NCBI GenBank assembly: GCA_014382365.1 | Contig: JACNJW010000040.1 | Location: 15,589-79,588, forward strand | Direction: 5' to 3' | Source: SAR324 cluster bacterium | Lineage (GTDB): Bacteria; SAR324; NAC60-12 | DNA length: 64,000 bases | Shown here: positions 1 to 41,837 of the stretch, piece after piece | How the letters are laid out: every line of letters starts with the position of its first letter | Position numbering within the stretch: the first letter of the stretch is position 1 | Notes under the pieces: model-generated | Database searches by the model: none | Seen by the model: only the letters and a program-made list of their open reading frames with translations | Told to the model about the DNA's origin: nothing | Position numbers and translations under genes: made by a program

Positions 1-211
1 GTATATTTCCTTCAAACCATGTCTCAGCAATTTCCTCCTGTAGCCATGGATGAAGCTTCCGTTCAACATTTGCAGTAAACACATAACGTACTGCAGTAGT
101 TTGCAGGCTCAGTGGTTTTTCTTCAGCAGCAATTCCAGCAGGCAATAATATTATTGTTATGCATGCATGCAAAAAAAGCACATTCAAAATTTTTGTGATT
201 AAATTAGTCAT
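1..211 (-). CDS. Partial CDS (N-terminal ~70 aa; the gene continues beyond the window start) encoding a secreted hypothetical protein. Translation is MTNLITKILNVLFLHACITIILLPAGIAAEE..., a signal-peptide-like N-terminus. It is the last visible member of the minus-strand array downstream of the 722-aa OMP gene.
   Basis: Manual reverse-complement translation of 1-211 gives an ATG at 209-211 (minus) and an open frame to the window edge with no stops. The start is 6 nt downstream of the upstream gene's stop, and the N-terminus is hydrophobic. The ORF track omits it because it is truncated. Confidence 0.4.
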   Translation of the reverse strand, partial: MTNLITKILNVLFLHACITIILLPAGIAAEEKPLSLQTTAVRYVFTANVERKLHPWLQEEIAETWFEGNI

Positions 212-217
212 AATGCT

Positions 218-2296
218 CTAAAAAAATATACCAAATCCTAATAATACTCGTGTAAGATTTTTTGCACTGGACCAGCGCTCATTAACTGTTGAACGCTGAT
301 TCGGATTTACGGGAATACTAGACTCCTGATAACTGTCTTTATAATAAAAATAAATTGTTGGCTGCAGTGCAAATTGAAAGTAGTAATTTTCCAGGCCCTG
401 CCAACCAGCATCAAGAACTGCAAACAGTCCGTATGCTTTTGCTGAATGCAGATAATCTGTAGCTGTTGAATTAAAGTCCTCCGACTCACCGGAAATGCTG
501 GCAGTTGCACTGGCATCTTTCCCCTGATACTTCAAAGTTGCATAACCGAGACCACCTCCTGCTCCGTAATAAAAACCCTCTGTAATTCCCCAGACAATCG
601 ACTCATCGACAAACCAGCGGTAAGTTGCTGATAATATTGACCGGTTGATTTCCAACGAGTTTCCGGATCCACTTTTTGCAATACTTTGCATTGCAGTACT
701 CTCTTCAGTCAAACGAAGTGCCTTAAAAGTATTGCCAATCTGCGGCCCTGTCAGTTCAAGAGCATAATGTAATTGCACATTATGATCTAGATTATAATCA
801 TAAAAAGTAACAAGACCATTCAATCCCGAAAATGATAGTCCTATTCCAAGTCCACGATACTCAGAAATACGCCAGTCGGAGGCCTTCCGGATTTTATCAG
901 CTTTTGATTCTGCCGTTTTCAGACTGATATCAAGATTGTCTGTTTTTTCTGCAGTGGATAAAACCTGTTTATTATATTGTTCAATAGAAAAATTTTCTAA
1001 GCCTGCTTTTATCTTACTTTTAATTATTTTCTTCTTCTTTTTCCCACCCGGATCCTGTATTGAAACACTTGCTATAGGCCCCTTTAATCTACGCTCTGCA
1101 TCATCCTGAAACCAGAATTTTTGTTGTGTGAAAACCAAAAAGTGACTTGCATCTGGAGGTATCACTGTACTTTCAGGAAACTTATAACTTAATTTCCGGC
1201 CTGCTTCACCTGCAGACTTTACCTGCAGGTCCTGATCCATTTTTGATAATGTTGAAACTTGAATTTCTTTTTCAGTCAATCCATCTCTAAATTTATTAAT
1301 TTCAAACTGAGTAATTGCTGCAACACTTTCCAAACGAGATAATTCATCTTTACCCCAAAAAAATAAATAATGACTGGAATCCGATTCTTCTTCAGGTCTG
1401 ATAAAAGAGATAGTACCAGCAATCATCCCTAAATCAGCAGGTTCTTTTTTAAAGAACATATTTTGTGTCTGCTCCTGTTCATGCTGTATTTCACTCTCAA
1501 GTTCTGTTGAAACTCCTTGACTCATTTGTCCTTCTGCATTTCTACTGAAGACAAGCAGATGAGTTGCTTCCGGAGGTAACAACATGTCTATTTCATGCTG
1601 CAATGGGGTTAACTGCCAGGGTGCTTGAAGTTGAGTACTCAGACTGCTGAACCAGTAACGCTTTTCAATCACTAATACCGGAGAATGTGCCCTTAAAACG
1701 GTGTCATTGCTACTGCCCCAGTATACAGTATAATGACTCACATCACGCTCATCCCAGGCACGTGTAATTTTAATTACACCCTTAACACGGTTGCCTTCTT
1801 TTGCAGTTTGTTCAAAAACAATAGCCTGGGGTTTACTCTGGGGTACTCCTTTATCAACCAGACTAAGACTGTATTTTTCCGTCTCTTCTCCATTTTGATA
1901 ACGGACATAAAGCAAAAAGTGAGTAGCACCTTGAGGAATTCTAGTATCTTTAAACTGAATTTTCATCCGGCTTCCAGACTCAGCTACAGGCAAAACTACA
2001 ATTGGCAGGAACATACCCAGGCGCTGATGGGGATTATTTCCCCAATACAAAACATATTTTTCTACTTGTTCAGATTTTTTTGCAGAAACAATCTCATCTG
2101 TAACTGTAAAAATCAAATCACCTCTGAGCCAACCTCCTCTTGAATCGTTGTCAGAAAATTCCAAAACTCCATTTACAGCTGCAGCTACAACTCCGTGAAA
2201 AAACACTAGCACAAACAGCAGGATTATTTTTATTTTCCAGGAAAGTACTGTTCTACGTTCCCGCTTTCTCCTATGATCAGGAGCAGTGAAAAACAT
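218..2296 (-). CDS. Outer-membrane beta-barrel protein (~693 aa from Met31; the ORF-track start at 2386 gives 722 aa). The signal peptide is MFFTAPDHRRKRERRTVLSWKIKIILLFVLVFFHGVVAAA. Three tandem ~95-aa beta-rich modules share the signature sHY-V-YWG ... P-ATHhLVF. A poly-Lys linker (GGKKKKKIIKSKIK) follows, then a ~270-aa C-terminal domain with alternating hydrophobic residues that ends ...LLGFGIFF (terminal Phe).
   Basis: ORF 218..2386 (-). The internal Met at 2294-2296 gives a canonical signal peptide and removes the 86-nt overlap with the giant-gene stop at 2301-2303. A C-terminal aromatic or Phe residue is the classical OMP beta-barrel signature. The repeated modules were seen by self-comparison of the translation. 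It is co-directional and contiguous with the giant gene. Confidence 0.7.
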   Translation of the reverse strand: MFFTAPDHRRKRERRTVLSWKIKIILLFVLVFFHGVVAAAVNGVLEFSDNDSRGGWLRGDLIFTVTDEIVSAKKSEQVEKYVLYWGNNPHQRLGMFLPIVVLPVAESGSRMKIQFKDTRIPQGATHFLLYVRYQNGEETEKYSLSLVDKGVPQSKPQAIVFEQTAKEGNRVKGVIKITRAWDERDVSHYTVYWGSSNDTVLRAHSPVLVIEKRYWFSSLSTQLQAPWQLTPLQHEIDMLLPPEATHLLVFSRNAEGQMSQGVSTELESEIQHEQEQTQNMFFKKEPADLGMIAGTISFIRPEEESDSSHYLFFWGKDELSRLESVAAITQFEINKFRDGLTEKEIQVSTLSKMDQDLQVKSAGEAGRKLSYKFPESTVIPPDASHFLVFTQQKFWFQDDAERRLKGPIASVSIQDPGGKKKKKIIKSKIKAGLENFSIEQYNKQVLSTAEKTDNLDISLKTAESKADKIRKASDWRISEYRGLGIGLSFSGLNGLVTFYDYNLDHNVQLHYALELTGPQIGNTFKALRLTEESTAMQSIAKSGSGNSLEINRSILSATYRWFVDESIVWGITEGFYYGAGGGLGYATLKYQGKDASATASISGESEDFNSTATDYLHSAKAYGLFAVLDAGWQGLENYYFQFALQPTIYFYYKDSYQESSIPVNPNQRSTVNERWSSAKNLTRVLLGFGIFF

Positions 2297-2300
2297 AGTT

Positions 2301-5300
2301 CTAAAATGCAGGAGGTTCTGCAAACGAAAGACTAGTCGGGACTCCGCTGATGCTGAGGCGCACCCAATAGCCCTGACCTTTCTCAACAGAACTGAACGTA
2401 CTGTAGCCTTTTGTAGTCAATTCCAGAGCAACTGATGTTTTTGGAGAATATGCCAGCCACTTGCTGCTCGCATCATCCCATTTCCAAATAGAGTGAACCC
2501 GGTCATACGATCCAGAATAGTCAAAAGTTGAAGATGTTGAATCACCCTGCGGCGGTGCACATGCTACAACCAGCGTTATCAATGCTGCAATTGGAATCAA
2601 TTGCCAGACAGGAATCCTATGCAGCTTATGTTGTGCAAGAGAGGTGCTTTTAAGCTGTACTTGTCTACGGTACACCATCAAACTAACCGAAGTTAACAGC
2701 AGCACAACCAGCAAAAGCATAGTTCTGGAATTTTGCCCGAGTTCATTTGCCGCAACTAGATAATCATTACCAACATAATTTAATCCGGACGGCGGCCCAT
2801 TTCCTCCGGAATTATCTAAAAGTCCCAAAGTATTGGATTCATCTTCTGACGTTTGATCAAAATTTGCGGCCTGTGTTATTTCTGCAACAGAAATCTTTTT
2901 TGCAGTTCCGGCCAAATTCCATTCTGAGTTCATGCTGCTCAATTGTGGTAAAGCAGTATAGCCTCCATAATTTGCAACTTCGAAATTTGCGGGATTGACC
3001 GGTGAATTCAGTTCAATCCAAAATCCTTCTCCGGCCTCAATCGTTGAGTTTAATTCAGTATAACCTTTGTCTGTATAAACAGTTTTGTTATCACTGCTGG
3101 TATAAAACTGCCATGCACCACTCCGGCGCACCCAGACAGCTTTGTAAGAACTGAATTGACTTTCAAAACTGGCAGGAGCTATTGATGTATAAGCCGGTAG
3201 CGAAACCAGATTACGGGAACCGCTCATTGTTATTGAAGCAGGAATGCTGCTGACAGATACAGTTCCGCTCAGAGCAGATGGAAGTGCATCACCAATCCTC
3301 AGTTCTGCAGTTCCTGAAGTTAAGCTCACATTAGTTGTATTGTCATAAGCGTTTTCCAGCACGAGAGTTGCTCCAGAAGATGCCGACTGGACATAAACCG
3401 GTTTTCCTGATGTTGTGTCAACACCAATCCACTGTCCGCTTGTCGCATATTCAGAAGATACACCACTACGTTGAGATGTCCGGAGTGAAAAACTACGTTT
3501 GGAGATATTTCGCGAACTGCCAGAAGTTGTCAACGGAATAGTTACAACCAGTTTTCCGGATTCCTGACTGACAGTTCCGCCGGCACCTACTCCAGGAAAA
3601 ATCTGCTTTGCATTCGTTGAAACAGTGGTAATTGTCGGTATCATCAAACCTTCACTATTCATACTCACACTGCTGCTCATACTGGAACTTGGTGCAAATG
3701 TAGAAGTTATATTACGGTTTTTGCTAAGTAAAATTGTCGAACCAGTTGCTGCCTGAAGGGTGCTCTCGGAAACACCTGTACCCTGCACTTGAATTGCATT
3801 ATTTGTACTGCTGGTGGTACTTATGATGGTACGGCTCACGCCGTCATTACCTGTTTCTGCAGAGGAAGTGCTGACAACTTTTCCGCTCTTGATCTGCAAA
3901 TCCATACTGGTTGAGGATGTGAATGTAGTTTTGCTTGCACCGCTGTCAAAACTTGTCGATGAGGTGCCGTCGTTCAAAAGACTGGCTGCAAGAGTTCCTT
4001 CCGTAACCGACATGCTGGCGGCAACTCCGCTGCTGGTATCAATTGCGACTGTCAAACCTGCATCTGTACTTATACTTGACTTACTAGACTCTGAACTGTC
4101 TGCATTTGTTGTCCTGCCAGTACCTCCGCTCAGTGTTATCTCAGTTAAAGTAGAACCGTCCGGACTGAGCGTACTGACAACCTGAGAAGTTACACCACTG
4201 GTAGCGTCAGTAGATGCAGGCAGAGAGATGCTTGAAGTACCGTCACTTCCGATACTAACTTCAGAGCCCTTGGGCGCTTTGACATTTGCACCTGTACTTC
4301 CGGAGCTAACACCGACTGTCATTTCTCCTTCTGTGCTGATGTTGGTTGACAAAGTCGCACCGCTGTTCAGAGTCATTGCAACACTAACTGATGCATCTTT
4401 ATTCATATTAACTTCTGCACCAAGCGGTACATTGACTTTAGATTCAGTACCGTCCTTAGTTTTAATTTTACTGACAACAGTACCGTCTGTATTCATATCT
4501 AGATTCAATTCAGTTGTTCCTGTGGCCAATTTAAGTGTTTTTGAACCATCTGAATTTGTGGTTTCTGCATCCAGTGTTATATCTTTTGGATATTTCGGTT
4601 TTATTGAACCCACAGCACTTCCTATTGCTGTAACTTCCTTGACCGGTACAATCGTAACTGAAGTTGAACCATAAGATGCGGTTTTATCATCATCGATCAC
4701 TTCCAGTCCAAATAAAATAACAGTTGTATCCTCAATATCCGGAGCAGAAAAATATGCAATACTCTCGTTTTCACGTTTTACTGTAACATCTGTACGCTGA
4801 CCTACATATTTCCACTTGTAAGAAACAATACGTCCGGTTGGATCAGGGTCATAAGAAGCAGAACCATCCAGAATTACTCTTGTCTGTTCATTAACTTTTT
4901 GATCAGCACCTATTTGCACTATTGGACTCAAACCTTTTTGCAGATCATCGTTGATGTTAGTAAAAGTATATTTGAAAGCATGCTGTCTACTATCTGAAGT
5001 TGAGGAATAATTCGTGTCCGTTGATTCCGTATAGCCTACTATTCGTACTCTGACGTCATCATCTACAACTGAATCATCTTCACCGGTAATTATCAGAGTT
5101 TGAGTCTTGTTCCATGTACTTGGACTAAAAGACATTGTGTATTTGTCAAGGGTAGCTTCTGATAAATCAGAACTGTTCAAAACAACCTGCACATCACTGA
5201 CAGGACGGCTGAGTAGTTTAACCGACATAGTCGCCGTTTTTCGTTCGCCTTCAGACTCGGAAAGCATCCAGTTGGCACTGACAACGTTTCTGTACAGACC

Positions 5301-8300
5301 ATGTGCATTAAATCCATATGCACCGGTTTCTGTGAATCCGCTACAATTATCTTCACAATCAACTCCGCCGGCAGTACTGATAGTGCCTACTGTTCCAGTG
5401 GTGGTGGATAATGTAATATAAGAAATTTTGCTGTTATCAGTCATACTCAAATTAGGTTCACCATCAATTTCAAGCAACGCGATTTCGTTTCCATCAACTG
5501 AAGTCAACAGTGTATTATCAAGCATCATCAAAGCATTTCCGCTGAATTTTGATGTTTGAGCATGTGCTAGTTTAAGCGTACCACCGGTGCTGGTCAGTAT
5601 TCCATCACTAATGCTTAAAGCACTCAACAGTATCAAGTCCGCATCAGCAGTAGAAATTCCTTCTAAACTTGAATCGATGATGACAGCATTTTCCACTGTA
5701 AGGTCACTGGTTGCACTTCCCAATGTCAAAGTGAAATCATTCAGATTTAAATTTACAAAATTTGAGGCTTCATCACTGGTCAAGGTACTGCTGGCTGCAA
5801 GTTTCAAATCAGTTTGTGAAATAGTAAGAACTCCACTCGATTTGATAAAATCAGCACCTAGAACCCAGGTGCTTCCACTAAGATCCAATTTACCTGTTCC
5901 TGAAAGCTGACCTCCACCCAATGTAGAAATGTCTCCTCCTGTAGATGTTATGCCACCATCACTGATGTTCAGTGCAGCAAGGAAACTTATGTCGGCATCT
6001 CCTGAAATCAACCACTCGTCGGCATTGTCGAAAGTCATTGCAGATGTTACAGACAAATCTGTACTTGCTGAACCTAGAGTCAATGTCAAATCATTCAGTT
6101 GCAGCTGGTTAAAAGCAAGTGCTGTATCACTGCTTAAAGCTATACTATTCAACAAATTCAGCATTGCAGATGAACCGTCAAAATTACCACCGCTTTTCGT
6201 ATAATCTGCACTGAGACTGAGAGTACTTGCTCCTAAGTCAAATTCAAATGTTCCGGACTGAGTACCTCCATTGCGGAAAAGCAGTGTGCCTCCAGTTGAG
6301 CTTAATTTCCCATCTGCAAGTGTCACATTACCCTCAACAGTCAAATCTGCATCTCCTGTCTTCAATAATCCATTTGCTGTTGTTAAAGCCAAGTTTCCAC
6401 TGAGAGTTAAATCACTTGATTCCGAACCCAGTGTGAGCGTATTTGCACCTAACTCAATTGTATTAACGGAAAGTAAGTTGTTGTTGGTTATTTTTAAACT
6501 ACTGAGTACTGTTAAAGATGAATCTGAGGTTTCCAGAGTTCCACCTGTTTTAAACAAATCTGCATTTAAATTCAGCAAACTATTGCTGATATTCAACAAC
6601 CCTCCAGTTTGAGATACTCCACCATTAAATATTAAGGTGCCCCCTGTTGAGTCAAGCCCTCCGTTAGCTACACTCAGTAATCCTTGAAGCTTCAAATCTG
6701 CTGAATTTGTACGTATTTGCTCATCTGCAGAATCCAATGTTGTTGGATCACTAACCGTCAAATCAGTTGTCTCAGAGCCGAGTGTAAGTGTTTTATCATT
6801 CAAAGTAAGTGTTTTCACTGAAAGAGATGTATTGCTCGTAAACGTAAGTCTCTCAGTTAATTCCAGCGTTGTTCCAGCTTCAGTTGCAGTCAGAGTTCCG
6901 GCTGATTTAAGAAAATCTGCACCCAGTTTAAATGTACTGTCTGTCAGATCCAGACTTCCTCCGGATTGCTCTCCACCTTTTGCAAATGAAATAATTCCTT
7001 TAGTTGAAGAAATAAGTCCATCCTGCATGACAAAACCACCCTGCAGGTTTAAATCTGCAGGACCTGTTACGAGTTGTGCATTTGAATCATCAAACGTAAT
7101 GTTATCTGAAACAGTCAAATCACTACTTTCAGTCAGCAAAGTTAGGAGCTTGTTATTTAATACAAGCGATTGTGTCTCAACTGCTGTATCGCTTGAATAA
7201 TTTGTATTTTCACTCAAACTCCAGGAAACATTGTCGAGTGACATTGCACCACCTGTTTTTGTCAAAGCCCCTTGAGTTTCCCATTGATTATTCTCAAATA
7301 CCAGAGTAGCACCTGCATCAACTTTTATTTGCGCATTATTCCATTTGCTACTGGAGGACTGAAATGTTACAGATTCTTGTGCATCCAGCAAATTGTTTTC
7401 AGAATAATCAAAATTTCCGCTGACTTTTGTTCCTGCAGAATTTAATACAAATTGACTTTCATCTTCAAATGTTACAGTTCCGCCAAAAGTCAACTGACCG
7501 CTGTCTCCGGATACTGTCAGCACTTTTTGGCTGGGTACTGAAAAAGAGTTCGGCGTATTTAGCTCAGTCAATACAGACAATTCAAGATTTATATTACCTT
7601 TTTGATCAAGTTGCTCTACTACTATTTTTGCAGAGCTTTGCAATATACTGTCGTCTCCTTCACAGCTAGAATCTGCACTCACATCAACAACCAACACTTT
7701 GTCGTTTTCTACAAGGCCATCACTTGGATCAATGCCAAGATGTGAGAGTGTAGTTGCATCATCTGCAAGTTTTAGAATTCCGCCATCCTTATTCAGGCGG
7801 ATTGAATTATTATCCCAACTCGAAAAACGTCCTCCACCCTGCAAGGCGAGACTCAGGTCATTAACTTCGAGTGGGATACTACCCTCATAAGTCAAAACTT
7901 TATCCGGTGCAATAAAAATTGTGGAATTAGTAAGATGTTGAATTTTGCCGTTAATTGTAACGTTTTCAGTGACGCACATTACTCCGCCGTTTAAATTAAT
8001 GTTGGCAGTCATTGACCTGTTGAAATTCATGGTCCCGCTTACATTAAAAGTCAGTCCTCCTCCAACATCGAAAACGGTGCTGCCAGTCATTACTATTTGA
8101 TCTTTAAAATTGATATCTATCTCGTTCTCAACCTTCACATTTACATCCTGCAGCGTTAAAATGACGTCGTTCGGCTGAGTCACTTCTGTTACCAAGAGCC
8201 AGCCTCCGTTGCCGTCACCCATTATTTTTGCAGTAGAATAGACGTTTAAATTTTCAACATTCAGTTCAAACGACTCGTTAGTGAAGCTCAAACCCACGTC

Positions 8301-30740: not shown

Positions 30741-30925
30741 GATGCCTTTGTAATATTACTAAAACATTTTCATTGCTTATGTTGCCAAAAATCATAAAAT
30801 ATTGAATTCATTAATCCCAATAAGATCTCGCTCTTCGTTCAAGATGACAAAATTCACATACGAAACAGCTATTTGCCATGAGTTTTTCTAAGTTATAATT
30901 CACAAGTTACCGCCCATTTAACCAG

Positions 30926-32608
30926 TTATTCAACCACAGAGTTTTGTAATGAACCAGTCCATTGCATCAAGTTTGAAGACAGATTATCTCCAACTGAAAC
31001 GTTGTCTGACCTCACAATTGAATTATTTTCAACCTGAATAAAAAATACTGCCTGCGGATTATTTGCTTCAGTGGTTGCAGGATTACTGTCATTTTTAAAA
31101 TTATAAGGACCATAAGTTATATTGTCGGTTATTCCAGGACCAGTCAAAACTAGTTTAAAATTCTGTACATCTGTCTCGCTGACATCTTCTACATAAACCA
31201 GATAAGTTCCATTGCCGACTTTTTGACTGTCTGTAGCCCAGACTTGAACCTCAGTATCAGAGGAACTGCTGCCGTCCTGCAACTGAACTACATCTCCAGT
31301 TTCAGAATATTTTTTGTTGGCTGCATTACTGTAAACCCAGTAACGCGAACCCCTGGTAGTATTATCAAAACTTCCATTTGTAGTTTCTTCATTGTATGTC
31401 CAATCCGGAAAATAGTATGAGTGCAGATCCGGATCCAGTCCATCTGTCCAACTGAGTGTAAAACACATGGTACTGTTGTCAACACAGGCATCATAGTTAA
31501 CTGTGCCAATTGTCTGTGTTTTTGAAACTTCATTAACCGTAAGAATCACTTGAAGTTCATTTGAACCGTGAACTAAAGGCAGGGATGAGGCTGTTGTAAA
31601 TTGAGTTGTGTAAGTCACATTATCCGAACCTTCAGTATTAGACCAACTGGAAAGAGCAATTGGTGGTGTAACATCTACAAGTGTACTGGCTCCAACCCGT
31701 TTTACCTGCATTAAGGATAATATCTGGGTTACATTGTCTTTTTGGGCAATCGGTACATTTAACACAAGTGTCCCGCTTGCAGTCGCATATGCAGATGTTC
31801 CCACTTGAGAAATGCTCATACTTTCAAAACTCAACCAATCAATATCTACATAATTCGGTGTTAATTTTACATCCAGAGTCTCTGTGGAACTGCTGACCAG
31901 AAACGTCTGATTTAAGGGAATAAATCCCTGCAAATCAACATCATAACTATATGAGTTATAAACAACATTTGAAAACACTATCGACTTACTGGCATTGTCC
32001 TCAGAACTAATCGTGAATGAACTGTTGTCAATGAGAATACCTGCAGTAGAATTAAGCTTGGCAGTACCTGTACTTCCGGGCAGCATTCCGGCACTGCTTG
32101 TGCTGCTGATTTTGAATGTAACAGTTGAATATTTTGTAGTCCAAAATTCAACAGCAACTGTTTTGGAGATAGTTTCCGAATCAATCGTAAAAATACCTGA
32201 TTCACCATATCCTCCAGGTGTAATAGTACCTGCACCCAATTCGTTCAAAGCATAAGTTTCACTAAAAAAGTAGAGGCAGAGTTTAATTTTTGTATCCAGC
32301 GGCACAACAAATTGAGCATCATAAGTATTAATGTCAACCAACGACCTGCTGTATTCAACTCCGGAATTTGCAGTAGTAGACTCACATTGAACTGCCGGTA
32401 TCAAAACTGCTAAAATTGTTTTGGCATCGCTGCTGGTCAAACTTTCTGCATACTGCGAACGACTCATTTTTCTATCTGATACGTCATCCATCCGAATCTG
32501 CAACGAAGCATAGCCGTTCGTCTCTGTTTCTACTTCTGCACAGGACACTGCAAGTACAAAAAGCAACAGCATAATAACAAAGATGTTAAGGTTGGTAGTC
32601 CGCATCAT
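30926..32608 (-). CDS. Secreted (probable lipo)protein, 560 aa, hypothetical. The signal peptide plus lipobox-like segment is LAVSC-AEVETE. A C-terminal PPC-like beta-sandwich module is present (DPDLHSYYFPDW...GNGTYLVYVEDVSETDVQNFKLVLTG). It lies immediately upstream of the giant gene.
   Basis: ORF 30926..32608 (-). N-terminal MMRTTNLNIFVIMLLLFVLAVSCAEV fits the Prosite lipobox pattern. The PPC-like motifs were recognised by eye. There is no enzymatic signature. Confidence 0.65.
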   Translation of the reverse strand: MMRTTNLNIFVIMLLLFVLAVSCAEVETETNGYASLQIRMDDVSDRKMSRSQYAESLTSSDAKTILAVLIPAVQCESTTANSGVEYSRSLVDINTYDAQFVVPLDTKIKLCLYFFSETYALNELGAGTITPGGYGESGIFTIDSETISKTVAVEFWTTKYSTVTFKISSTSSAGMLPGSTGTAKLNSTAGILIDNSSFTISSEDNASKSIVFSNVVYNSYSYDVDLQGFIPLNQTFLVSSSTETLDVKLTPNYVDIDWLSFESMSISQVGTSAYATASGTLVLNVPIAQKDNVTQILSLMQVKRVGASTLVDVTPPIALSSWSNTEGSDNVTYTTQFTTASSLPLVHGSNELQVILTVNEVSKTQTIGTVNYDACVDNSTMCFTLSWTDGLDPDLHSYYFPDWTYNEETTNGSFDNTTRGSRYWVYSNAANKKYSETGDVVQLQDGSSSSDTEVQVWATDSQKVGNGTYLVYVEDVSETDVQNFKLVLTGPGITDNITYGPYNFKNDSNPATTEANNPQAVFFIQVENNSIVRSDNVSVGDNLSSNLMQWTGSLQNSVVE

Positions 32609-32713
32609 CTTAACTAGTGCAGGATTGTGGTATCATCATTCACACTCATATTAACTTAAAACTAAACTTGTAAAACTTTTTTCATTTAATTATTGCCATC
32701 AATTGCAGAAATG

Positions 32714-33739
32714 CTAACGGTTCGTGAATGTCATTCCTATAATGATGGTTTTACTTGTTGCGGCATCAATAGCATTTTCCGCATTATTAACCATGGTTTC
32801 TAATTCCTCAAGACGATCCAGTTGTTCCAGTAATTCGCCTTCTGCGTCTGCTTCTTCTTCAAAGACTGGTGCTGCATCAGTATTGTTCAGTCGCTTCTGA
32901 ATAGACCCTACAGGTTCAGACTGACCAAACTGCACCTCTTGAAAACTAGCAGTACCATCTGCTTGGGCAATTTTATCTCTTTCCTCAGGTGAAACAGTAA
33001 CAGGAGCAGACGGACCTGAACCTTCACGCACATGTGAAACCTCGTTTGCAACAACTGCAATTTCATAATCCGGAACTTCTGGAGATGCAAGCGAGACCTC
33101 ACCGGATAAAGCCAGCAAATTTGTTGAATCTCCACTTGTGGCAACCACGAAATCAGTTCCTTTAACTCCTATAATTGCTGTGACTGTCCGGACATTAAAT
33201 CTCTTTTTTTTACGCTTCAGTTTAGTTTTTGTAAGTTTTGCCAGGTTACCCTTTAATTTTTCGCCAAAATTTACATTCGCTTTGTTTTCCACAGCTTGTT
33301 CTTTTTTAGTCTTTTGCTTTACTTCTCCACTGCCTGATGTTTCTGCAAGAGGTTTGACACTGAAGTTTCCTTTGCCTGTCAAAAGGGCCATGTTGTTTTG
33401 TTCTGCAGAAATATCATCCAGTTTAAAAAAACTGTGAGAAAATAATTTTACTGTGTTATCTCTGTTTTTTAAATAAAGTGAAATCTGGGTGCCCTTACCG
33501 GTTTGTAAGCGGTCATTAGCCTGCAGCAGATATGTTTCACCAACTTTTTGTAAAAAAACACTTTTTCCATTACGAATCAACTTAACTCTGCCGGCATGCA
33601 ACTCCAGAGAATTCTGAACTGCACCTGCAGAAGACTGAAATAACAACAGGCAAAAGCAGGTAATTGCCAGCGAAAGTAAAATTATCTGTTTTTTGATTTG
33701 GTAAAACATTTTTATTCTCAACAATTTTAGAACATCCAA
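32714..33739 (-). CDS. FecR-domain periplasmic or membrane-anchored protein, 341 aa. It has an N-terminal signal or TM anchor, a central FecR-like beta domain (...TVTAIIGVKGTDFVVATSGDSTNLLALSGEVSL...), a Lys-rich linker and a C-terminal coiled coil (LEQLDRLEELETMVNNAENAIDAA).
   Basis: ORF 32714..33739 (-). The GxxGTxFxV motif is typical of the FecR/PF04773 fold. It overlaps the upstream 416-aa gene by 13 nt, which implies translational coupling. Confidence 0.65.
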   Translation of the reverse strand: MDVLKLLRIKMFYQIKKQIILLSLAITCFCLLLFQSSAGAVQNSLELHAGRVKLIRNGKSVFLQKVGETYLLQANDRLQTGKGTQISLYLKNRDNTVKLFSHSFFKLDDISAEQNNMALLTGKGNFSVKPLAETSGSGEVKQKTKKEQAVENKANVNFGEKLKGNLAKLTKTKLKRKKKRFNVRTVTAIIGVKGTDFVVATSGDSTNLLALSGEVSLASPEVPDYEIAVVANEVSHVREGSGPSAPVTVSPEERDKIAQADGTASFQEVQFGQSEPVGSIQKRLNNTDAAPVFEEEADAEGELLEQLDRLEELETMVNNAENAIDAATSKTIIIGMTFTNR

Positions 33740-34977
33740 ATATATTGCAGTATCAGTTGATTCTCCTGAAAGGCCCGTGTTGCATCATTTGAAGCCTGTT
33801 TTAATTGTTTCAAGTCTATACCTACTATAGTCGCTTGACTGTATGCATATTTACAATTTAATGTCATTTCATCCTTTTTATTCTGTAAAACAACATTAGT
33901 TGCCGGATCAGCACTTTTATATTGCTGATTATTATTTTGAATATTCAGACCAAAGACCCAGGGAGTCCAGGAATAAGAAGCTCCGGCGTCAATCAGTGTC
34001 GACTGATAATCTTTGCTGGCAGTCTTAAATTTTGTCGTTTGTGAATCCCAGCGTAATTTAAATCTAAAATCCTGCCAGCGCATCTTTGCTCCTAAAGAAA
34101 TCAGAGTTAGTATTCCGTCTTCGGAGTTAGTTTTTACTTTGTTCTGACTGTCTAACTGCAGTTTAAAAGAAGCATCCACGAACTTTGCCCAGCGTTTTTT
34201 TGCTGCAATAAACAGAAATAGAGACTGTACATCTTCCCTGAATTCTCCAGCTTTTTTAGGATCAGTCGGATTAGCATCTTTGACACTAATCACACTCTGT
34301 CCCAAAGCGGAACTAAAATCCATTCCCAGCAGTTGTTTGTTCCTGTATTCTGTACTGAACTGCCGGAACAGGACTTCTTCAGCAACTAAGCTGCGGTTTT
34401 GCTGACGATCAAATTTTAAGACAGCTTTCAACGAAACTGCTGAATCCTTTTGCAGTTGAAAAGCGTATGCTCCAGACACAAGCAAATCATTTTTAGCAGC
34501 ACTGGTTTTTGAGCTGCCTTCCTGCACACGAAGCATGTTACTGCTGTTTGTCTGCCCCAGCATAATGACACCATTCAGCGGTGGAGGTATTTTCTTTTTT
34601 TTCTGCTTTGGTTCATAAGTTACAATAAATTCCTGTTCCTGCTGTCCTGTTTTTGTCTGCACAAAAATAGTAAAACTATTCTTGCCGGGCTTTAAATAAT
34701 ATGGTATTTCATATTCCGCCCAATCTGAATCCTCTCTCACCATTTGCGCAAAGCCGTTAACTTTGACTACCAGCAACGGACTGAAAGTACTGACTTGAAA
34801 ACGAAACCAACCTTCGGCCTGCTCTTCCTTTCCGGGCGAAGTCCGAAAAACAAGTATCTCTTCCGGAAGTTCCAGTCCCTGCTTGTTATCTTCAGTCTGA
34901 GCCTGTACAACACTAATTCCCTGTAGAAAAACTATAATCCAGATTAAGACACAGACCCTCATGCTAAAATGAAACAT
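33727..34977 (-). CDS. Secreted protein, 416 aa, probably an outer-membrane protein. It has a signal peptide, an N-terminal Ig-like beta-sandwich region, a poly-Lys/Pro linker (KQKKKKIPPP) and a ~280-aa C-terminal domain ending ...LILQYIWMF (C-terminal Phe, a beta-barrel-type signature).
   Basis: ORF 33727..34977 (-). The N-terminus is MFHFSMRVCVLIWIIVFLQGISVVQAQ. The terminal aromatic residue and alternating pattern suggest an OMP. The gene is 8 nt downstream of the MotB-like gene. Confidence 0.6.
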   Translation of the reverse strand: MFHFSMRVCVLIWIIVFLQGISVVQAQTEDNKQGLELPEEILVFRTSPGKEEQAEGWFRFQVSTFSPLLVVKVNGFAQMVREDSDWAEYEIPYYLKPGKNSFTIFVQTKTGQQEQEFIVTYEPKQKKKKIPPPLNGVIMLGQTNSSNMLRVQEGSSKTSAAKNDLLVSGAYAFQLQKDSAVSLKAVLKFDRQQNRSLVAEEVLFRQFSTEYRNKQLLGMDFSSALGQSVISVKDANPTDPKKAGEFREDVQSLFLFIAAKKRWAKFVDASFKLQLDSQNKVKTNSEDGILTLISLGAKMRWQDFRFKLRWDSQTTKFKTASKDYQSTLIDAGASYSWTPWVFGLNIQNNNQQYKSADPATNVVLQNKKDEMTLNCKYAYSQATIVGIDLKQLKQASNDATRAFQENQLILQYIWMF

Positions 34978-34985
34978 AGTTTGCC

Positions 34986-36557
34986 TTAGCCTTCATCAGG
35001 ATCCGGAAAAAATTTTCTGGTTCGTTCTTTTTTTACAGGCCTCGTAAATATTAGATCTACCCGCCGATTTGCTTTGCGTGCAGCTTTTAACTCTTTCCCG
35101 CTTTTCCGCTTACCATCCTCAGATAGATATGACTTTTTAGGTCTGGTTTCCGCATAGCCGGAAATTGCAATTCTTTCCGGATTAAAGCCGACTTTTTCCA
35201 TCATTAGTGTGGCGACTACAGTGGCCCGCACCGTACTCAGTTCCCAATTATTCCTGAATTTACTTTTTTTTCTGAGAGGGACATCATCCGTATGTCCATC
35301 CACCCTGATTGCATCTCCTTCCAATTCATAACGATCACGGATTTCACTCAGAAATTGCTGTAATTGCACTTCTACTTCCTGCACAATTGCTGCTCCTCCG
35401 CTGGGAAACAGGAAGCTGGACGGTAGAGAAAGGATACAACGTGATTTACTTGCATTGAGTTCGAAGGAGGCAAAATCTTCATTTTCACGTAAAAAACGAT
35501 TAATTCCACTACAGTCCTTCATTTCCTGTGCACCAATGATGGTATTGACTTGTTTTGAGATACGACCTGTTTCTGCATTTTTAATGGCGAGAGCATCCAT
35601 TTGAACAACCAATGTGCGCGTAGCATATAAAGGAACCTCGTCTTGCAAGACTTCCATTTCCACCGTACCTTTTTCAGTATAGGGATAGATCTTAATCGTA
35701 GCACCATCCATGAAACGAAAGTCTTTTTTCTCCTTGGCAGTTCCAGCAAATTTAATTGGAATTTCTGTTATTACACCACTGACTGGTGAAATTTTAGCAG
35801 TGATATTTGAGATACCTTTGTAAAGATCCCTGCGTGAAACTTCAAAGCTAACGCTGGGAAGCGGTTCATCATCCTGGATAAAAATGCTCCTACTGACAAA
35901 GTTTCCACGCTCCACATCTCCACGTAGTTTTCCGATTTGTACCAGAATTTCTTCCGAATCCTCATAAAGTTCATCGTTGATGATACATAATGGGAAAAAA
36001 GTTTCATATTCTCCCTGTGGAATAACTGCCACTTCTGATCCCAGAATATAATCAAACTCCTGAATTTCAGTCGGATTTGCAGTTAAACCTTCACTTGTGC
36101 AAAGCTCAGCATCAACCGGCCCTCTGCGTGCGCTGCCTGAAAAGAAAAGGGGAATCCTCAAATCTTCTTCTACTTTTTCATTGAGCAGGACCACTACTTT
36201 CAACACTCCTGCAGATTCATCAACCTGACCTTTGGCCATGCTTTCAATCAGAATCTGCGTTTTGTAGAGAGATGTCTGTTTTTTACCAATCAGTGTTTCC
36301 AGTTTTTCTTCAAAATTTTCTTTGTTATCAAAGAAAACTCCCATCATCGATCCTAAACTATTGACAGTATTATCCGGAAGACGGTTTTTCAAAGTATCAA
36401 TTGTTGCAGCATTGACTACAAATCCGGTTTTCAGATCTACTTGTGGTTTGTTAAACAACGACAAATACACAAAAAAACAAAACAGCAATGTAATCAAATC
36501 AGCGAATGTCAACATCCACCTTACTTCATTAGCCTTTTTTTTCTTTCCTCCAAGCAT
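34986..36557 (-). CDS. MotB-like stator protein with an OmpA-type peptidoglycan-binding C-terminal domain, 523 aa. This is about 200 aa longer than canonical MotB because of a long periplasmic linker.
   Basis: The N-terminal TM helix with the conserved MotB Asp reads VRWMLTFADLITLLFCFFVYL (compare MotB ...YADLMTLL...). The C-terminal OmpA/MotB motif is VDGHTDDVPL...NWELSTVRATVV. It is adjacent to the MotA-like gene with an 88-bp gap. Confidence 0.85.
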   Translation of the reverse strand: MLGGKKKKANEVRWMLTFADLITLLFCFFVYLSLFNKPQVDLKTGFVVNAATIDTLKNRLPDNTVNSLGSMMGVFFDNKENFEEKLETLIGKKQTSLYKTQILIESMAKGQVDESAGVLKVVVLLNEKVEEDLRIPLFFSGSARRGPVDAELCTSEGLTANPTEIQEFDYILGSEVAVIPQGEYETFFPLCIINDELYEDSEEILVQIGKLRGDVERGNFVSRSIFIQDDEPLPSVSFEVSRRDLYKGISNITAKISPVSGVITEIPIKFAGTAKEKKDFRFMDGATIKIYPYTEKGTVEMEVLQDEVPLYATRTLVVQMDALAIKNAETGRISKQVNTIIGAQEMKDCSGINRFLRENEDFASFELNASKSRCILSLPSSFLFPSGGAAIVQEVEVQLQQFLSEIRDRYELEGDAIRVDGHTDDVPLRKKSKFRNNWELSTVRATVVATLMMEKVGFNPERIAISGYAETRPKKSYLSEDGKRKSGKELKAARKANRRVDLIFTRPVKKERTRKFFPDPDEG

Positions 36558-36645
36558 CTTTTCTTCTTCAACGAGTCACGGTTTTCTATAAATTATTTAT
36601 GTCAACAGTTAGCAAATTATACTGAGTACCATAAACTTTAATACA

Positions 36646-37512
36646 TCACCCATACTGTTTATCAAATTCGTCCCGCTTGTGAGGGAGAAACATTCGTAGT
36701 TCCTGAAGAATTGTGTATGGTGCCTCACGACGTGCTATGCGATGCACACTTTCACGAATCATTTCCAGCAAAATTAGATTTGATTCTTTGAGTTGCTTCC
36801 GCTTCGAAGCTATCGGCAGTAAAATCATGTTTGAAAAAATTACTCCATAAAGTGTGGTCAACATGGCAATTGACATGGCCTGCATAACTGCACGAATACT
36901 TCCGGTTTCCGCCAGCATCAGTACCAGCCCAACAATCGTTCCAACCATACCAAATGCAGGAGCTGCGGTTGCCATAAAATCCATAATCTCAATTTCTTCA
37001 TCTGCACGCTGCTCATACATGGCCACCTCAGACTTTATGATCTGGTGCAGCGACTCTTCCTCTACTTGCTCTCTGACAATCAGCCCCTCTATCCAGCGTC
37101 GCATAAATGGATTTTGCAGATTGTTGAGATCATCGTTGGTGATTCGCTTTCCACTATAGCGTTTTTCTGCGATTAGCTTGGATTGATCATATATTTCCTG
37201 AGTTGCTTCTTCAGCAATATCTGAAGAAAACACTTTAGGGATGCTGCCAAAACTTCGTAAAGCCTTTCGGTAGGGAAAGGCAATGAAAGTTGCAGAAACA
37301 GTTCCGCCCAACACGATGAAGGTAGATTTCAGGTCAAAAAATCTTAAGATTTGAATTAAATATTTGTTATATGAATCCGCTTCTCCGGAACTCTCCAGCC
37401 AAAGTGCCAGATTAGAAAATTCTGCCGGCCACAGAATTCCAGAAAGAATAAAAATTGCTCCTGATAAAAAACCGAGTGATGTTCCTAATTTATCTGCACT
37501 TGTTTGTTTCAT
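36646..37512 (-). CDS. MotA/PomA-like proton-channel stator subunit (MotA/TolQ/ExbB superfamily; closest in pattern to flagellar MotA/PomA), 288 aa.
   Basis: There are four predicted TM helices. The TM3 signature MATAAPAFGMVGTIVGLVLML closely matches PomA/MotA ...AAPAMGMIGTLVGLV.... TM4 reads SIAMLTTLYGVIFSNMILLPI, and the MotA-like cytoplasmic tail is ...MIRESVHRIARREAPY.... Its stop overlaps the start of the upstream 543-aa gene by 4 nt (ATGA-type coupling). Confidence 0.85.
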   Translation of the reverse strand: MKQTSADKLGTSLGFLSGAIFILSGILWPAEFSNLALWLESSGEADSYNKYLIQILRFFDLKSTFIVLGGTVSATFIAFPYRKALRSFGSIPKVFSSDIAEEATQEIYDQSKLIAEKRYSGKRITNDDLNNLQNPFMRRWIEGLIVREQVEEESLHQIIKSEVAMYEQRADEEIEIMDFMATAAPAFGMVGTIVGLVLMLAETGSIRAVMQAMSIAMLTTLYGVIFSNMILLPIASKRKQLKESNLILLEMIRESVHRIARREAPYTILQELRMFLPHKRDEFDKQYG

Positions 37513-39140
37513 GAATCCTTTTTATTCCAAATTTTAGCCAGTTCCTGATGCACATGACGCATAAAAACGTTGCGGTGCAGATCTCGGAGTTGATTTATCC
37601 GCTCCTTATCTGCATCATCTTCTTCACGTTGTTTTTCAAAACCCTGCTGTTGTTCTTGATAATATTGCCGTGTTTCTTCTGTATATTCCTTCATAATTTT
37701 TTCAGTCACCGATGACTCAGCATCGAGTAACAGATAAGGTACTGAGACCCTGGCTCCAGTGCTTAACCGTGAACGCTCAAAACGTTCCATCACTCTGGCT
37801 ACAAGTGCTTCCTCAATCTCTGAACTGCTTTGCAGTTCATCAAAAGACAGACTTCGTTCGCGGATTTGAGACATGGAACTGTCTGCAGTTTTTGCCAGAT
37901 CTGGATTTTTCTTCTTCAGTTCTCCTGTACTGTCAAGTATCATGTTCCATTGTTCAGCACTCACCTGTCCTGAAAGTTCTCCAATTCGGCCTAGTCCGTC
38001 AAAAGAAACCGGTAATTTTTTTGCAGTTTCAGCTAATTCCTCCGCCAGCTTTTCCAGTTCACTTGGCGAAACACTGACATCTTTCATGGCCAGCACAGCC
38101 GCCAGTGCATCCTCTGCAGGAAACTCCTTGAGGATTACAGCCATTTCACCAGGATCCATTTGACTGAAAACTGCAGCCTGTTGAGCTGGTTTTATTTTCT
38201 GCAGCAGATTAACTCGAATTCCTGCAGGCATCCTGCGAACAAAACCGAAATAATCTATTTTGCCTTCATCATCATCTGCCCCATCTTCTTCATCAGGAAG
38301 ATCCAGTTCCTCTTCTTCCTCCTCTGTTTCCGGTGCCATGCTTTCAATAGCAGTTGCAACTTTTCCAAGTGTAGACTGTAAAGGATGTTCTTTTTCCTCT
38401 TTCTCACGAGTACTGCGGGAGACAAAAAAGAAGAGGGCAAGGGTCAACAACAACAGAACTCCAAGTGTGCCAATTATGGCCCATTGAGCAGGTGTAATTG
38501 CTTCAGTACCTTCAGGCACATATTCAGGAATTAACTGCTCCACTCCCAGCATTTCATAACCTGCTGGAAATTCTGCACTTATTGCTGCTGCCTGTTTCAG
38601 CATTTCCTGTGCTGCAACCGGTTCATCAAGATTTAAATTTGCACGTGCACCAACCAGTAAATTTACATATTCAACCAGTTTTGCAGAAAAATCCGGCCGC
38701 TCGATTTGTAGTTTTTCTATAACAACTGACTGTTCAAAACGGTCCTGAGATTTTAATTCAGTAATTTCTGAACGTATCCGCATTTCCACTTGATCTAAAT
38801 TTACTGCATCGTTGACCGTTAAAATTATACTGCGGTAATTGAAGACTACTTTCACGTCATTTTCACTAGTAATAATTTTCACTCCAGGAAGCAGATCACT
38901 GTCTTTTTTTACAGGTGTATTATCCAAAACTGAATGCATTACTACTGAAACGTCAATATATTTTTCAGCTAGAGTTTTACGCAGAATTTTATGAATCCGT
39001 TCACGCATCTCCGGTTCCGGCCGGCTGCGACTTAAAATTTCCGCCTGACAGTAACTAATACTGAGGAAAATGAAAACCAGGCTGCAGCTTATAATGCTTA
39101 GAATTTTTTTGTTCATAATGTGGTATGTGTTCATGGACAA
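37509..39140 (-). CDS. Bitopic inner-membrane protein with a cytoplasmic FliG/MgtE_N-like helical repeat, 543 aa. It has an N-terminal signal or TM1, a ~190-aa periplasmic domain and TM2 (WAIIGTLGVLLLLTLALFFFV) followed by positive charges. The cytoplasmic part starts with an acidic stretch (EEEEEELDLPDEEDGADDDEG). A FliG-like ARM-type segment follows: LQKIKPAQQAAVFSQMDPGEMAVILKEFPAEDALAAVLAMKDVSVSPSELEKLAEELAE. The C-terminus is coiled-coil and charged.
   Basis: ORF 37509..39140 (-); an alternative start at Met9 (39116) is possible. The FliG-like assignment comes from my pattern match to the FliG middle/C-domain repeat (...L..EHPQTIALvLSyLdP.kAAeVLs.LPeELradVayRIAtl.rVSPEvleEVE..LE...). It needs HHpred or structure prediction. 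The gene is translationally coupled to the MotA-like gene. Confidence 0.6.
   Translation of the reverse strand: MSMNTYHIMNKKILSIISCSLVFIFLSISYCQAEILSRSRPEPEMRERIHKILRKTLAEKYIDVSVVMHSVLDNTPVKKDSDLLPGVKIITSENDVKVVFNYRSIILTVNDAVNLDQVEMRIRSEITELKSQDRFEQSVVIEKLQIERPDFSAKLVEYVNLLVGARANLNLDEPVAAQEMLKQAAAISAEFPAGYEMLGVEQLIPEYVPEGTEAITPAQWAIIGTLGVLLLLTLALFFFVSRSTREKEEKEHPLQSTLGKVATAIESMAPETEEEEEELDLPDEEDGADDDEGKIDYFGFVRRMPAGIRVNLLQKIKPAQQAAVFSQMDPGEMAVILKEFPAEDALAAVLAMKDVSVSPSELEKLAEELAETAKKLPVSFDGLGRIGELSGQVSAEQWNMILDSTGELKKKNPDLAKTADSSMSQIRERSLSFDELQSSSEIEEALVARVMERFERSRLSTGARVSVPYLLLDAESSVTEKIMKEYTEETRQYYQEQQQGFEKQREEDDADKERINQLRDLHRNVFMRHVHQELAKIWNKKDS
37990..38250 (-). other. FliG/MgtE_N-like helical repeat segment within the 543-aa protein (approximate coordinates).
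   Basis: Residues about 300-380, with the motif IKPAQQAAVFSQMDPGEMAVILKEFPAEDALAAVLAMKDVSVSPSELEKLAEEL. Confidence 0.5.
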
Positions 39141-40685: not shown

Positions 40686-40693
40686 ATACATAA

Positions 40694-41793: not shown

Positions 41794-41837
41794 TTCAACA
41801 CCTGCCATAGTCTAAAACCACCTTCCTGAAATACTCG

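Follow-up and report, generated by a model that had tools for sequence, protein, structure and literature searches.

What does a flagellar-type ion-driven motor do when its genes stand beside that of a giant repetitive protein? The question is raised by a 64,000-nucleotide stretch of a SAR324 metagenome-assembled genome (MAG) (GCA_014382365.1, contig JACNJW010000040.1, positions 15,589 to 79,588), hereafter the window. Nine genes run co-directionally on its minus strand from position 39140 to the window start; coordinates below are in window numbering and on that strand unless stated otherwise. They encode a FliG-like membrane protein of 543 aa (37509..39140; 541 aa from the start used by NCBI), MotA, MotB, a putative barrel protein, a FecR-domain protein, a secreted protein, a giant protein of 9479 aa, its outer membrane (OM) partner, and a partial secreted protein. 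The original prediction, made from the DNA letters alone, took this array for an undescribed envelope machine driven by the proton motive force (PMF). Its coordinates and gene list were reproduced from the open reading frame (ORF) listing, with gaps of at most 185 bp. Flagellar genes and genes of type I, III, V, and IX secretion systems (T1SS, T3SS, T5SS, and T9SS) were absent from the 64-kb window, and flagellar structural or export genes were also absent from the flanks of the related loci. We propose, with about even confidence, that the cluster encodes one envelope-spanning apparatus of SAR324 and of the distantly related "Deltaproteobacteria bacterium TL4" (hereafter TL4), in which a flagellar-derived torque module acts on a non-flagellar load and mechanically actuates an anchored giant adhesin.

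The stator proteins were analyzed by profile and structure-database searches. MotA (288 aa; 36646..37512, overlapping the FliG-like gene by 4 bp) has four transmembrane (TM) helices, with a cytoplasmic loop of ~100 aa between TM2 and TM3, and matches Pfam MotA_ExbB (E = 3e-18). NCBIfam MotP/PomA/MotA models matched at E values of 1e-37 to 1e-27, compared with ~1e-2 for the exbB/tolQ models. Because these scores lie far below the equivalog cutoffs, MotA288 is a divergent member of the MotP/PomA/MotA family. Its matches in the PDB were flagellar stators only (Aquifex MotA at 1.2e-23, Vibrio PomA at 7e-22, and Clostridium, Bacillus, and Campylobacter MotA, all in the range 1e-23 to 8e-7), aligned over TM2, the ~100-aa loop, TM3, TM4, and the C-terminal helices; no ExbB or TolQ structure was matched at E ≤ 1e-3. 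The features covered by this alignment, from TM2 to the C terminus, are those by which PMC12505986 distinguishes flagellar ("FIT") ion-driven motors from generic ("GIT") ones. Judged by sequence similarity rather than by a tree, MotA288 has the A-subunit features of the FIT clade, namely four TM helices, an expanded TM2-TM3 domain, and MotA/PomA as closest relatives.

MotB (523 aa; 34986..36557) has a TM helix with a channel Asp (TFADLITLL) that aligned with TFSDTITLL of Clostridium MotB in the PDB search. Its Pfam matches were MotB_plug (E = 2e-10), OmpA (E = 8e-13), and Calx-beta (E = 0.003); the plug match (PF13677) covers only profile positions 11-40 of 58, corresponding to the transmembrane part. 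The peptidoglycan-binding domain matched MotB and PomB structures at E values of 1e-16 to 1e-14. MotB523 combines the two B-subunit features of the FIT clade, a channel Asp and an OmpA-like peptidoglycan-binding domain, and the assignment of both stator proteins to the flagellar type, already made in the original prediction, is borne out by these searches. Between the TM helix and the peptidoglycan-binding domain lies an insert of ~300 residues (aa ~40-330) with a weak Calx-beta match in both SAR324 and TL4 (L009:12872-14482). The linker of flagellar MotB is much shorter than this insert, which could give a different periplasmic reach or bind another component.

The 543-aa protein consists of an N-terminal signal or anchor segment (aa 8-31), a periplasmic alpha/beta domain (aa 35-139) followed by helices, a TM segment (aa 222-240), an acidic disordered linker, and a FliG_M-/FliG_C-like part (aa ~295-542). 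Hydropathy analysis indicated that the N-terminal hydrophobic segment is possibly cleaved after SYCQA and that aa 222-240 form the one strong TM segment. An AlphaFold2 (AF2) model built on a 12-sequence alignment, with a predicted local distance difference test (pLDDT) score of 69.7, has a periplasmic domain of beta-alpha-beta-beta-alpha-beta order, two helices, the TM segment, the linker, and an all-helical cytoplasmic half. When this model was compared with the PDB by Foldseek, FliG occupied ranks 1-12 (E values of 1e-4 to 1e-2). A profile of the protein family matched Thermotoga maritima FliG (E = 1.1e-8); aa 293-453 span FliG_M and the linker helix and reach into FliG_C, the start of which was aligned as RRMFVFEDI in the family and RERSLSFDEL in T. 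maritima. The middle (ARM-M) domain of FliG is present. FliG_N, the FliF-binding domain, had no Pfam match in the protein, and its place is occupied by the hydrophobic segment, the periplasmic domain, the TM segment, and the acidic linker. In architecture the 543-aa protein resembles a truncated FliF joined to the middle and C domains of FliG, its own membrane anchor replacing docking on FliF. The name "FliG-like inner-membrane protein" used in the original prediction was right as to the FliG middle domain and probably the C domain; a FliF-like/FliG(MC) chimera-like architecture is the better term. No gene for FliM or FliN was found in the cluster. NCBI and JGI label the 543-aa protein (P0001, P0015, P0016, and P0029) as "flagellar motor switch protein FliG," and surveys of SAR324 motility genes that are based on such labels may overstate the evidence for flagella.

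To determine the distribution of the 543-aa family, 1.84 billion cluster representatives were searched exhaustively with phmmer. The search returned 41 representatives at E ≤ 0.001, mostly fragments, with full-length relatives at 70%, 47%, and 28% identity, and it did not reach canonical FliG. The family was confined to SAR324 and TL4; the 28% relative (P0144) is a protein of TL4 (GCA_051382335.1), a genome not flagged as a MAG. A search seeded with the TL4 protein returned the query alone, and no lineage bridging SAR324 and TL4 was found. An alignment-based scan of one genome per GTDB species gave 13 loci, all from SAR324 or from MAGs labelled Lambda- or Deltaproteobacteria; the single-sequence version of the same scan returned no relatives. 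The exact MotA sequence is present on contigs of many marine metagenomes and in MAG GCA_016784405.1.

Gene order was compared by tblastn of the window proteins. The order FliG-like, MotA, MotB, 416-aa protein, FecR protein, 560-aa protein, N terminus of the giant is complete in six other species-level SAR324 genomes (L013, L014, L015, L016, L020, and L021), and seven loci (L010-L012, L017-L019, and L022, the last at 47% identity) keep it at least to MotA and until their contig ends. No locus has another gene interposed or a contradicting neighbor. The FliG-like gene adjoins this MotA/MotB pair in every locus with downstream DNA, that is, in all except L023, which ends within the FliG-like gene and gives no downstream information. 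At the other end of the array, the triad of giant, OM protein, and small protein recurs in two further lineages: in GCA_902590795.1 the three genes encode, in order, at least 6080 aa, 685 aa (the OM protein), and 154 aa, and in a clade at 36% identity they encode at least 1567 aa, 704 aa, and 145 aa.

The TL4 locus (L009) keeps the core parts in a different order: a 1014-aa repeat/PKD protein, an 819-aa protein, a 762-aa OM protein, a 346-aa barrel-like protein, a 401-aa lipoprotein, the FliG-like protein, MotA, MotB, and a 1713-aa lipoprotein. The locus starts inside the fiber gene (1014-aa product, L009:1-2756), whose 5' end lies beyond it. The 1014-aa protein matches aa 8063-8718 of the giant, and the 819-aa protein matches its last ~750 aa (E = 8e-34). 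Directly after the fiber gene, the 762-aa OM protein matches the SAR324 OM partner at 29% identity (E = 6e-78). The TL4 FliG-like protein has 658 aa and 28% identity; TL4 MotA has 44% identity, and TL4 MotB has 35% over its full length, insert included. The 1713-aa lipoprotein after MotB carries the same FN3-like repeats. The set kept through this rearrangement comprises the FliG-like protein, MotA, MotB, the fiber with its anchor region, and the FN3-barrel partner, and because TL4 keeps these parts together despite the altered order, we consider them functionally linked. The array is more than a chance neighborhood. Synteny of the motor trio with the giant gene had been named beforehand as a check on the prediction; it is kept in all informative SAR324 species genomes and rearranged in TL4, and the linkage withstood the comparison.

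These data bear on the least likely of the rival explanations, namely that the trio is a spare flagellar stator with a FliG paralog that serves an ordinary flagellum, the adhesin genes lying downstream by chance or history. The NCBI and JGI labels of the 543-aa protein fit such a view, and SAR324 genomes have been reported with motility and chemotaxis genes (PMC9031357). Against it, the protein has its own membrane anchor and periplasmic domain where FliG_N would be, the linkage persists through the change of gene order in TL4, flagellar genes are lacking in the window and in the related-locus flanks, and all genes of the array are co-directional with very short gaps. We regard mere adjacency as highly improbable.

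The giant protein (2301..30740) begins with a Sec-type signal, followed by Calx-beta/cadherin-like modules, a LamG domain, ~8000 aa of repeats, and a PKD domain; a Ser/Thr-rich stretch then leads to the C-terminal anchor region. The LamG or concanavalin A-like lectin domain (aa 390-550; 29091..29573) lies at the N-terminal, distal end (Pfam Laminin_G_3, E = 1.5e-24) and also matches the NCBIfam TafC-like model (E = 4e-13); a K319L-like PKD domain spans aa 8611-8697 (E = 1.4e-12). The repeats are rich in Leu, Ser, Thr, Gly, and Asn; their hydrophobicity recurs every 2 and every ~7 residues, larger modules measure 118 and 170 aa, and a beta-solenoid is the probable fold. Hydropathy revealed a C-terminal hydrophobic hairpin (2559..2729) made of TM1 (aa 9338-9356), a basic loop, and TM2 (aa 9376-9394, ending VVAC). 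A small Trp-rich domain stands on either side of it, and the same arrangement is found in three other lineages: in L027, in L028, and in the 819-aa protein of TL4 (28% identity, E = 2e-40). By the positive-inside rule, the hairpin suggests that the C terminus is held in the inner membrane. Neither the C-terminal 399 aa nor a 1000-aa repeat segment had a PDB sequence match at E ≤ 1. RTX, two-partner secretion (TPS), autotransporter, T9SS C-terminal domain, and exosortase- or sortase-type signals were not found in the giant with Pfam and NCBIfam, and sorting by a T1SS, a T5SS, a T9SS, or a sortase-type route was rejected on those grounds. The giant had been predicted to be a Sec-dependent surface fiber: the Sec signal is there, and the surface location is at most putative, given the conserved TM hairpin and the absence of a visible OM translocation route.

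Other features of the giant were observed. TM2 ends in a lipobox-like [VA]-A-C motif (VVAC, AVAC, VVAC, and MYAC in the giant, L027, L028, and L009:2780-5239, respectively), like an internal lipoprotein signal peptide; if processed by Lgt and LspA, it would free a Trp-rich lipoprotein of ~85 aa from the end of the giant. Residues 1495-2258 (23967-26258) duplicate residues 2605-3368 (20637-22928) as 764 aa of identical protein sequence. The two 2292-bp copies have five differences, all silent, and their flanks are unrelated (32-38% identity), which points to either a very recent in-frame event or an assembly effect. Fiber length is clearly variable among lineages.

The OM partner gene begins 4 bp past the stop codon of the giant gene and encodes 722 aa from a TTG (218..2386) or 692 aa from the ATG at 2296 that gene callers choose (218..2296). 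The AF2 model of the 692-aa form (mean pLDDT of 69.8) has a signal peptide, four FN3-like beta-sandwiches, a linker, and a small OmpA/OprF/OmpX-like barrel with a terminal Phe. Foldseek comparison of this model with the PDB returned fibronectin FN3 tandems and the eight-stranded barrels OprF (4rlc), OmpA (1bxw), and OmpX (2m06), with probability 1.0 and target TM-scores of 0.5-0.65; NspA was also among the barrel matches at probability 1.0. The model thereby identifies the protein as a predicted anchor rather than a translocon or export pore. The barrel with N-terminal repeat modules that had been predicted at this position (693-722 aa) is confirmed as a barrel with FN3-like modules, now of a small eight-stranded, OmpA-like anchoring kind and not a translocon. 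Two candidate relatives, P0234 and P0235, were rejected as uninformative, as they have only FN3-like repeats in common with the OM partner and lie in unrelated neighborhoods.

Three envelope proteins are encoded between MotB and the giant, and none of them had a PDB sequence match at E ≤ 1. The 416-aa protein (33727..34977) starts, by hydropathy, with a signal peptide and a beta-rich module, which a Lys-rich linker connects to a putative porin-like OM barrel with a terminal Phe; it is kept across SAR324 at 37-74% identity. Its proposal as an OM barrel rests weakly on that C-terminal Phe and on a sub-threshold match to Porin_4 (E = 1.2e-4). The 341-aa protein (32714..33739; 331 aa from the ATG used by gene callers) is a FecR-domain protein, as had been predicted: it scores 35.7 bits with Pfam FecR (E = 1.2e-8), for which the cutoff is 24, and an acidic coiled segment makes up its C-terminal part. 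Hydropathy places a hydrophobic segment at aa 19-37, so it is membrane-anchored or secreted, and the ~18 residues ahead of this segment leave it without a cytoplasmic anti-sigma domain. Genes for an extracytoplasmic function (ECF) sigma factor or a TonB-dependent receptor or transducer were not found in the cluster, and assignment to FecR anti-sigma or trans-envelope signaling was rejected: the FecR domain is present, and the anti-sigma domain, the sigma factor gene, and the receptor gene are missing from the cluster. A faint, sub-threshold FecR-domain match (E = 0.01) was seen in the N-terminal part of the 1014-aa TL4 fiber protein (L009:1-2756); it may be a fusion hint that the SAR324 FecR protein acts with the fiber, or it may be mere beta-solenoid-like similarity. 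The 560-aa protein (30926..32608) is by hydropathy secreted and possibly a lipoprotein (...LAVSC), with 65-73% identity within SAR324. It matched no Pfam family at E ≤ 1, and the PPC-like module ascribed to it earlier was not detected.

The final gene of the cluster (2..211, first 70 codons) was predicted to encode a partial secreted protein, and its translation is identical to the start of a conserved 154-aa secreted protein (L007:12086-12550), whose orthologs follow the OM protein at L027:12063-12527 and L028:6830-7267. This small protein (145-154 aa) has the strongly conserved motifs TTAVRYV, CH[IV]CDNVYR, and EWSKPW; it matched no Pfam family and had no BLAST counterpart in the TL4 locus.

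With the envelope components described, a second rival can be weighed, in which the giant stays in the periplasm or envelope as a scaffold or tether between its inner-membrane hairpin and the FN3/OmpA-like partner in the OM, and the motor and the FecR protein energize envelope maintenance, shape, or signaling in the manner of Tol-Pal or TonB-FecA-FecR. A conserved C-terminal TM hairpin, a gene-coupled OM protein that would be an anchor and not a pore, the lack of a recognizable OM export device in the cluster, and the FecR domain are all in keeping with this. The LamG, Calx-beta-like, and PKD domains of the giant are arranged like those of extracellular adhesins, however, and ~9000 residues of extended repeat would far exceed the width of the periplasm. 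The FecR protein lacks an anti-sigma domain, neither an ECF sigma factor nor a TonB-dependent transducer is encoded in the cluster, and the stator is of the MotAB type rather than the TolQR/ExbBD type. A scaffold or tether is in our judgment quite unlikely.

In the proposed torque-driven apparatus, the MotA/MotB stator would be fixed to peptidoglycan through the OmpA-like domain of MotB, and flow of H+ or Na+ through the Asp channel would turn the MotA ring. We infer that the cytoplasmic loop of MotA pushes the FliG_C-like domain of the 543-aa protein. This protein, anchored in the inner membrane with a possibly FliF/PrgK-like periplasmic domain and not docked on FliF, would form a self-contained rotor ring or a moving rack. 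Movement would be relayed in the periplasm to the giant through the periplasmic domain of the 543-aa protein and probably through the FecR, 416-aa, and 560-aa proteins. Sec would export the fiber, the C-terminal hairpin would retain it in the inner membrane, and the FN3-plus-OmpA-like partner would link it to the OM. As output, an adhesin with a lectin tip and probably a beta-solenoid body would be displaced, rotated, or put under tension, serving attachment or surface movement. A more specific form of this proposal, which we put forward tentatively and consider rather doubtful, is that the 543-aa protein is a self-contained equivalent of the MS-ring and FliG ring turned by MotAB, giving a minimal rotary motor without T3SS, rod, hook, or filament, whose load is the giant fiber anchored by the C-terminal hairpin. 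Such a motor is possibly a stripped-down derivative of the flagellar motor; a pre-flagellar rotor-stator relative is less likely.

Several observations weigh against the torque-driven apparatus. Pfam FliG_C gave no match to the 543-aa protein at E ≤ 1, the HMMER alignment to the T. maritima FliG C terminus (made with an approximate query sequence) stops at aa 453, and the last ~90 residues were not reached by sequence methods. The EHPQR motif of FliG_M, which binds FliM, is not kept (QKIKPAQQAAV compared with QSEHPQTIAVV). At the equivalents of PomA R88/K89/E96/E97, SAR324 MotA has EKRYSGKRITNDDL, with the acidic pair retained and the basic residues shifted, and TL4 MotA has AKMQNSPGGIGGAGI, with the charges lost; the loop charges that contact FliG in Vibrio are thus partly retained in SAR324 and lost in TL4. 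Both AF2 models, of the 543-aa protein and the OM partner, are of moderate quality (pLDDT of ~70, predicted template modeling scores of 0.35 and 0.49, and alignments of 12-15 sequences). No OM conduit for a 9479-aa protein was identified among the cluster genes, and the fiber could be periplasmic. The TL4 fiber has just ~1.8 thousand residues over two ORFs, showing that fiber length is not conserved, and the 416-aa, FecR, and 560-aa proteins had no BLAST counterparts in the TL4 locus. Because SAR324 genomes are reported with chemotaxis and fliM genes (PMC9031357), a conventional flagellum is probably encoded elsewhere in the SAR324 genome, and the trio may be linked to a true flagellum. The evidence is entirely computational.

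The genomic setting was also examined. From the FliG-like end, the intergenic gaps are -4, 88, 8, -13, 105, 185, and 4 bp; the last is -86 bp with the 722-aa TTG start of the OM partner and +4 bp with the ATG. Promoter and terminator scans of the array found nothing above shuffled expectation, and no terminator-like site was found by consensus scan within the gaps between cluster genes. Upstream of the cluster lies a divergent intergenic region of 315 bp (39141..39455), in which the top sigma-70-like match on the minus strand is at 39325..39297 (10 of 12 positions; a consensus-scan result and not functional evidence). A longer contig from this species shows the cluster ending just after the 154-aa gene, with an opposite-strand gene and housekeeping genes beyond it. 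GC content is even over the window (~0.39-0.47), and tRNA and Rfam scans of it returned no matches.

On the plus strand, a divergent operon (39456-41800) encodes a 409-aa OmpA-domain protein with a long, acidic, low-complexity N-terminal half, a 226-aa ExbB/TolQ-type protein, and a 140-aa ExbD-type protein; LpxB and PmbA follow the ExbD-type gene, and the set resembles Tol-Pal. The OmpA/ExbB/ExbD set is adjacent in six loci of the same species (L001-L006) and not in the 47%-identity locus L010. Because the adjacency is lost there, this operon is probably outside the fiber-motor system. The remainder of the window beyond the array and the divergent set consists of housekeeping genes.

In the bacterial flagellum, torque is generated at the FliG-MotA interface, the contact that defines this motor. 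If the proposed apparatus is real, the FliG-MotA module can be redeployed beyond flagella, which would bear directly on the evolutionary assembly of the flagellar motor. Were the rotary form correct, it would be the first natural FliG-MotA torque interface outside the flagellum, in one of the most abundant deep-ocean lineages. All MotAB-type (FIT) stators were assigned to flagella in a recent survey (PMC12505986). Searches of the accessible literature found no description of a membrane-anchored FliG homolog, of a non-flagellar pairing of FliG with MotAB, or of this SAR324 cluster, in agreement with the earlier statement that the locus is undescribed. The proposal also offers a hypothesis for particle attachment or movement in SAR324, which is uncultured yet globally abundant, and a culturable carrier may exist, the TL4 record not being labelled as a MAG.

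Among known systems, the flagellar rotor-stator shares with the cluster a FIT-type stator with channel Asp, the OmpA-like anchor in MotB, and the FliG middle domain and FliG_C-like region of the partner. In topology, with an N-terminal hydrophobic segment, a periplasmic alpha/beta domain, a TM segment, and a cytoplasmic FliG part, the 543-aa protein resembles a FliF-FliG fusion; engineered full-frame fusions of this kind are reported to assemble rings (PMC6079021). The differences are that FliG_N, EHPQR, FliM/FliN, the T3SS export gate, rod, hook, and flagellin genes are missing from the SAR324 cluster, that the periplasmic part has ~150 aa in place of the three ring-building motifs and beta-collar of FliF, that MotB has its ~300-aa insert, and that the neighbors are a giant repeat protein and OM anchors.

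SiiAB/SiiE of Salmonella SPI-4 is alike in that one locus encodes both a MotAB-like channel and the giant (5559-aa) non-fimbrial adhesin that the channel controls in a PMF-dependent manner (PMC6272769), and it underlies a third rival. Here the MotA/MotB/FliG-like unit would use or sense the ion-motive force for export, folding, retention, or release of the giant without moving it. The precedent is close, a MotAB-like proton channel beside a giant adhesin whose surface retention depends on PMF (PMC6272769); the conserved synteny is compatible with such a role, and the N-terminal lectin and PKD domains suit an adhesin. Yet SiiAB partners a T1SS (SiiCDF) and has no FliG-like protein in Salmonella, whereas the SAR324 cluster has no ABC transporter, membrane fusion protein, or TolC gene and its giant has an N-terminal Sec signal. 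A FliG M+C module is not known to do anything but take up torque from MotA and is also hard to explain in a pure gate or sensor, and we consider this accessory role unlikely. SiiE has BIg repeats and leaves the cell through a T1SS by means of a C-terminal signal, whereas the SAR324 fiber is Sec-dependent, has a C-terminal TM hairpin, and is encoded without T1SS genes. Membership among T1SS giant adhesins (SiiE, LapA, and MpIBP) was rejected on the Sec signal, the TM hairpin, and the lack of RTX/T1SS families and transporter genes.

Two-partner secretion or another T5SS was likewise rejected: the OM partner, on whose model the barrel assessment rests (the 416-aa barrel was not modeled), is eight-stranded with FN3-like rather than POTRA domains, and the giant has no TPS or autotransporter family. 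Zorya ZorAB is another MotAB-like 5:2 unit in a non-flagellar setting. It was rejected on PADLOC, which gave ZorA at E = 1e-3 (16 bits), generic ZorB peptidoglycan-binding matches, no long ZorA tail, and no ZorC, ZorD, or ZorE genes; no other defense family was found in the cluster by PADLOC. In marine Synechococcus, SwmA/SwmB includes a ~10,000-aa protein needed for non-flagellar swimming in planktonic cells, whose motor is unknown. Export of the ABC/T1SS type is linked to the SwmB locus, which is not known to contain MotAB- or FliG-like genes.

The gliding systems are similar in concept. Bacteroidota gliding/T9SS combines an ion-driven 5:2-type motor in the inner membrane, periplasm-spanning parts, OM components, and a giant repetitive adhesin, and GldLM with SprB is a precedent for an ion-driven unit serving a giant adhesin (bioRxiv 10.1101/2021.10.19.464928). 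Coupling there runs through periplasmic GldM and not through a cytoplasmic FliG-like domain. Neither GldK/L/M/N, SprA, nor a T9SS C-terminal domain was found among the cluster proteins or in the giant with Pfam and NCBIfam; the absence of GldK/N and T9SS C-terminal signatures noted in the original prediction holds, and T1SS and T5SS signatures are absent as well. In Myxococcus Agl-Glt, too, an ion-driven inner-membrane motor is connected with a surface adhesin and with periplasmic and OM beta-barrel proteins. Its AglRQS motor falls in the TolQR-type (GIT) clade (PMC12505986), whereas the SAR324 stator is flagellar in type, and the Glt signature proteins are not present in the SAR324 cluster. 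SiiAB, GldLM, and AglRQS already form a known class of ion-driven 5:2 motors that serve envelope machines or giant adhesins; if our proposal is correct, the SAR324 apparatus is another ion-driven envelope machine handling giant adhesins, beside SiiAB-SiiE, GldLM-SprB, and Agl-Glt.

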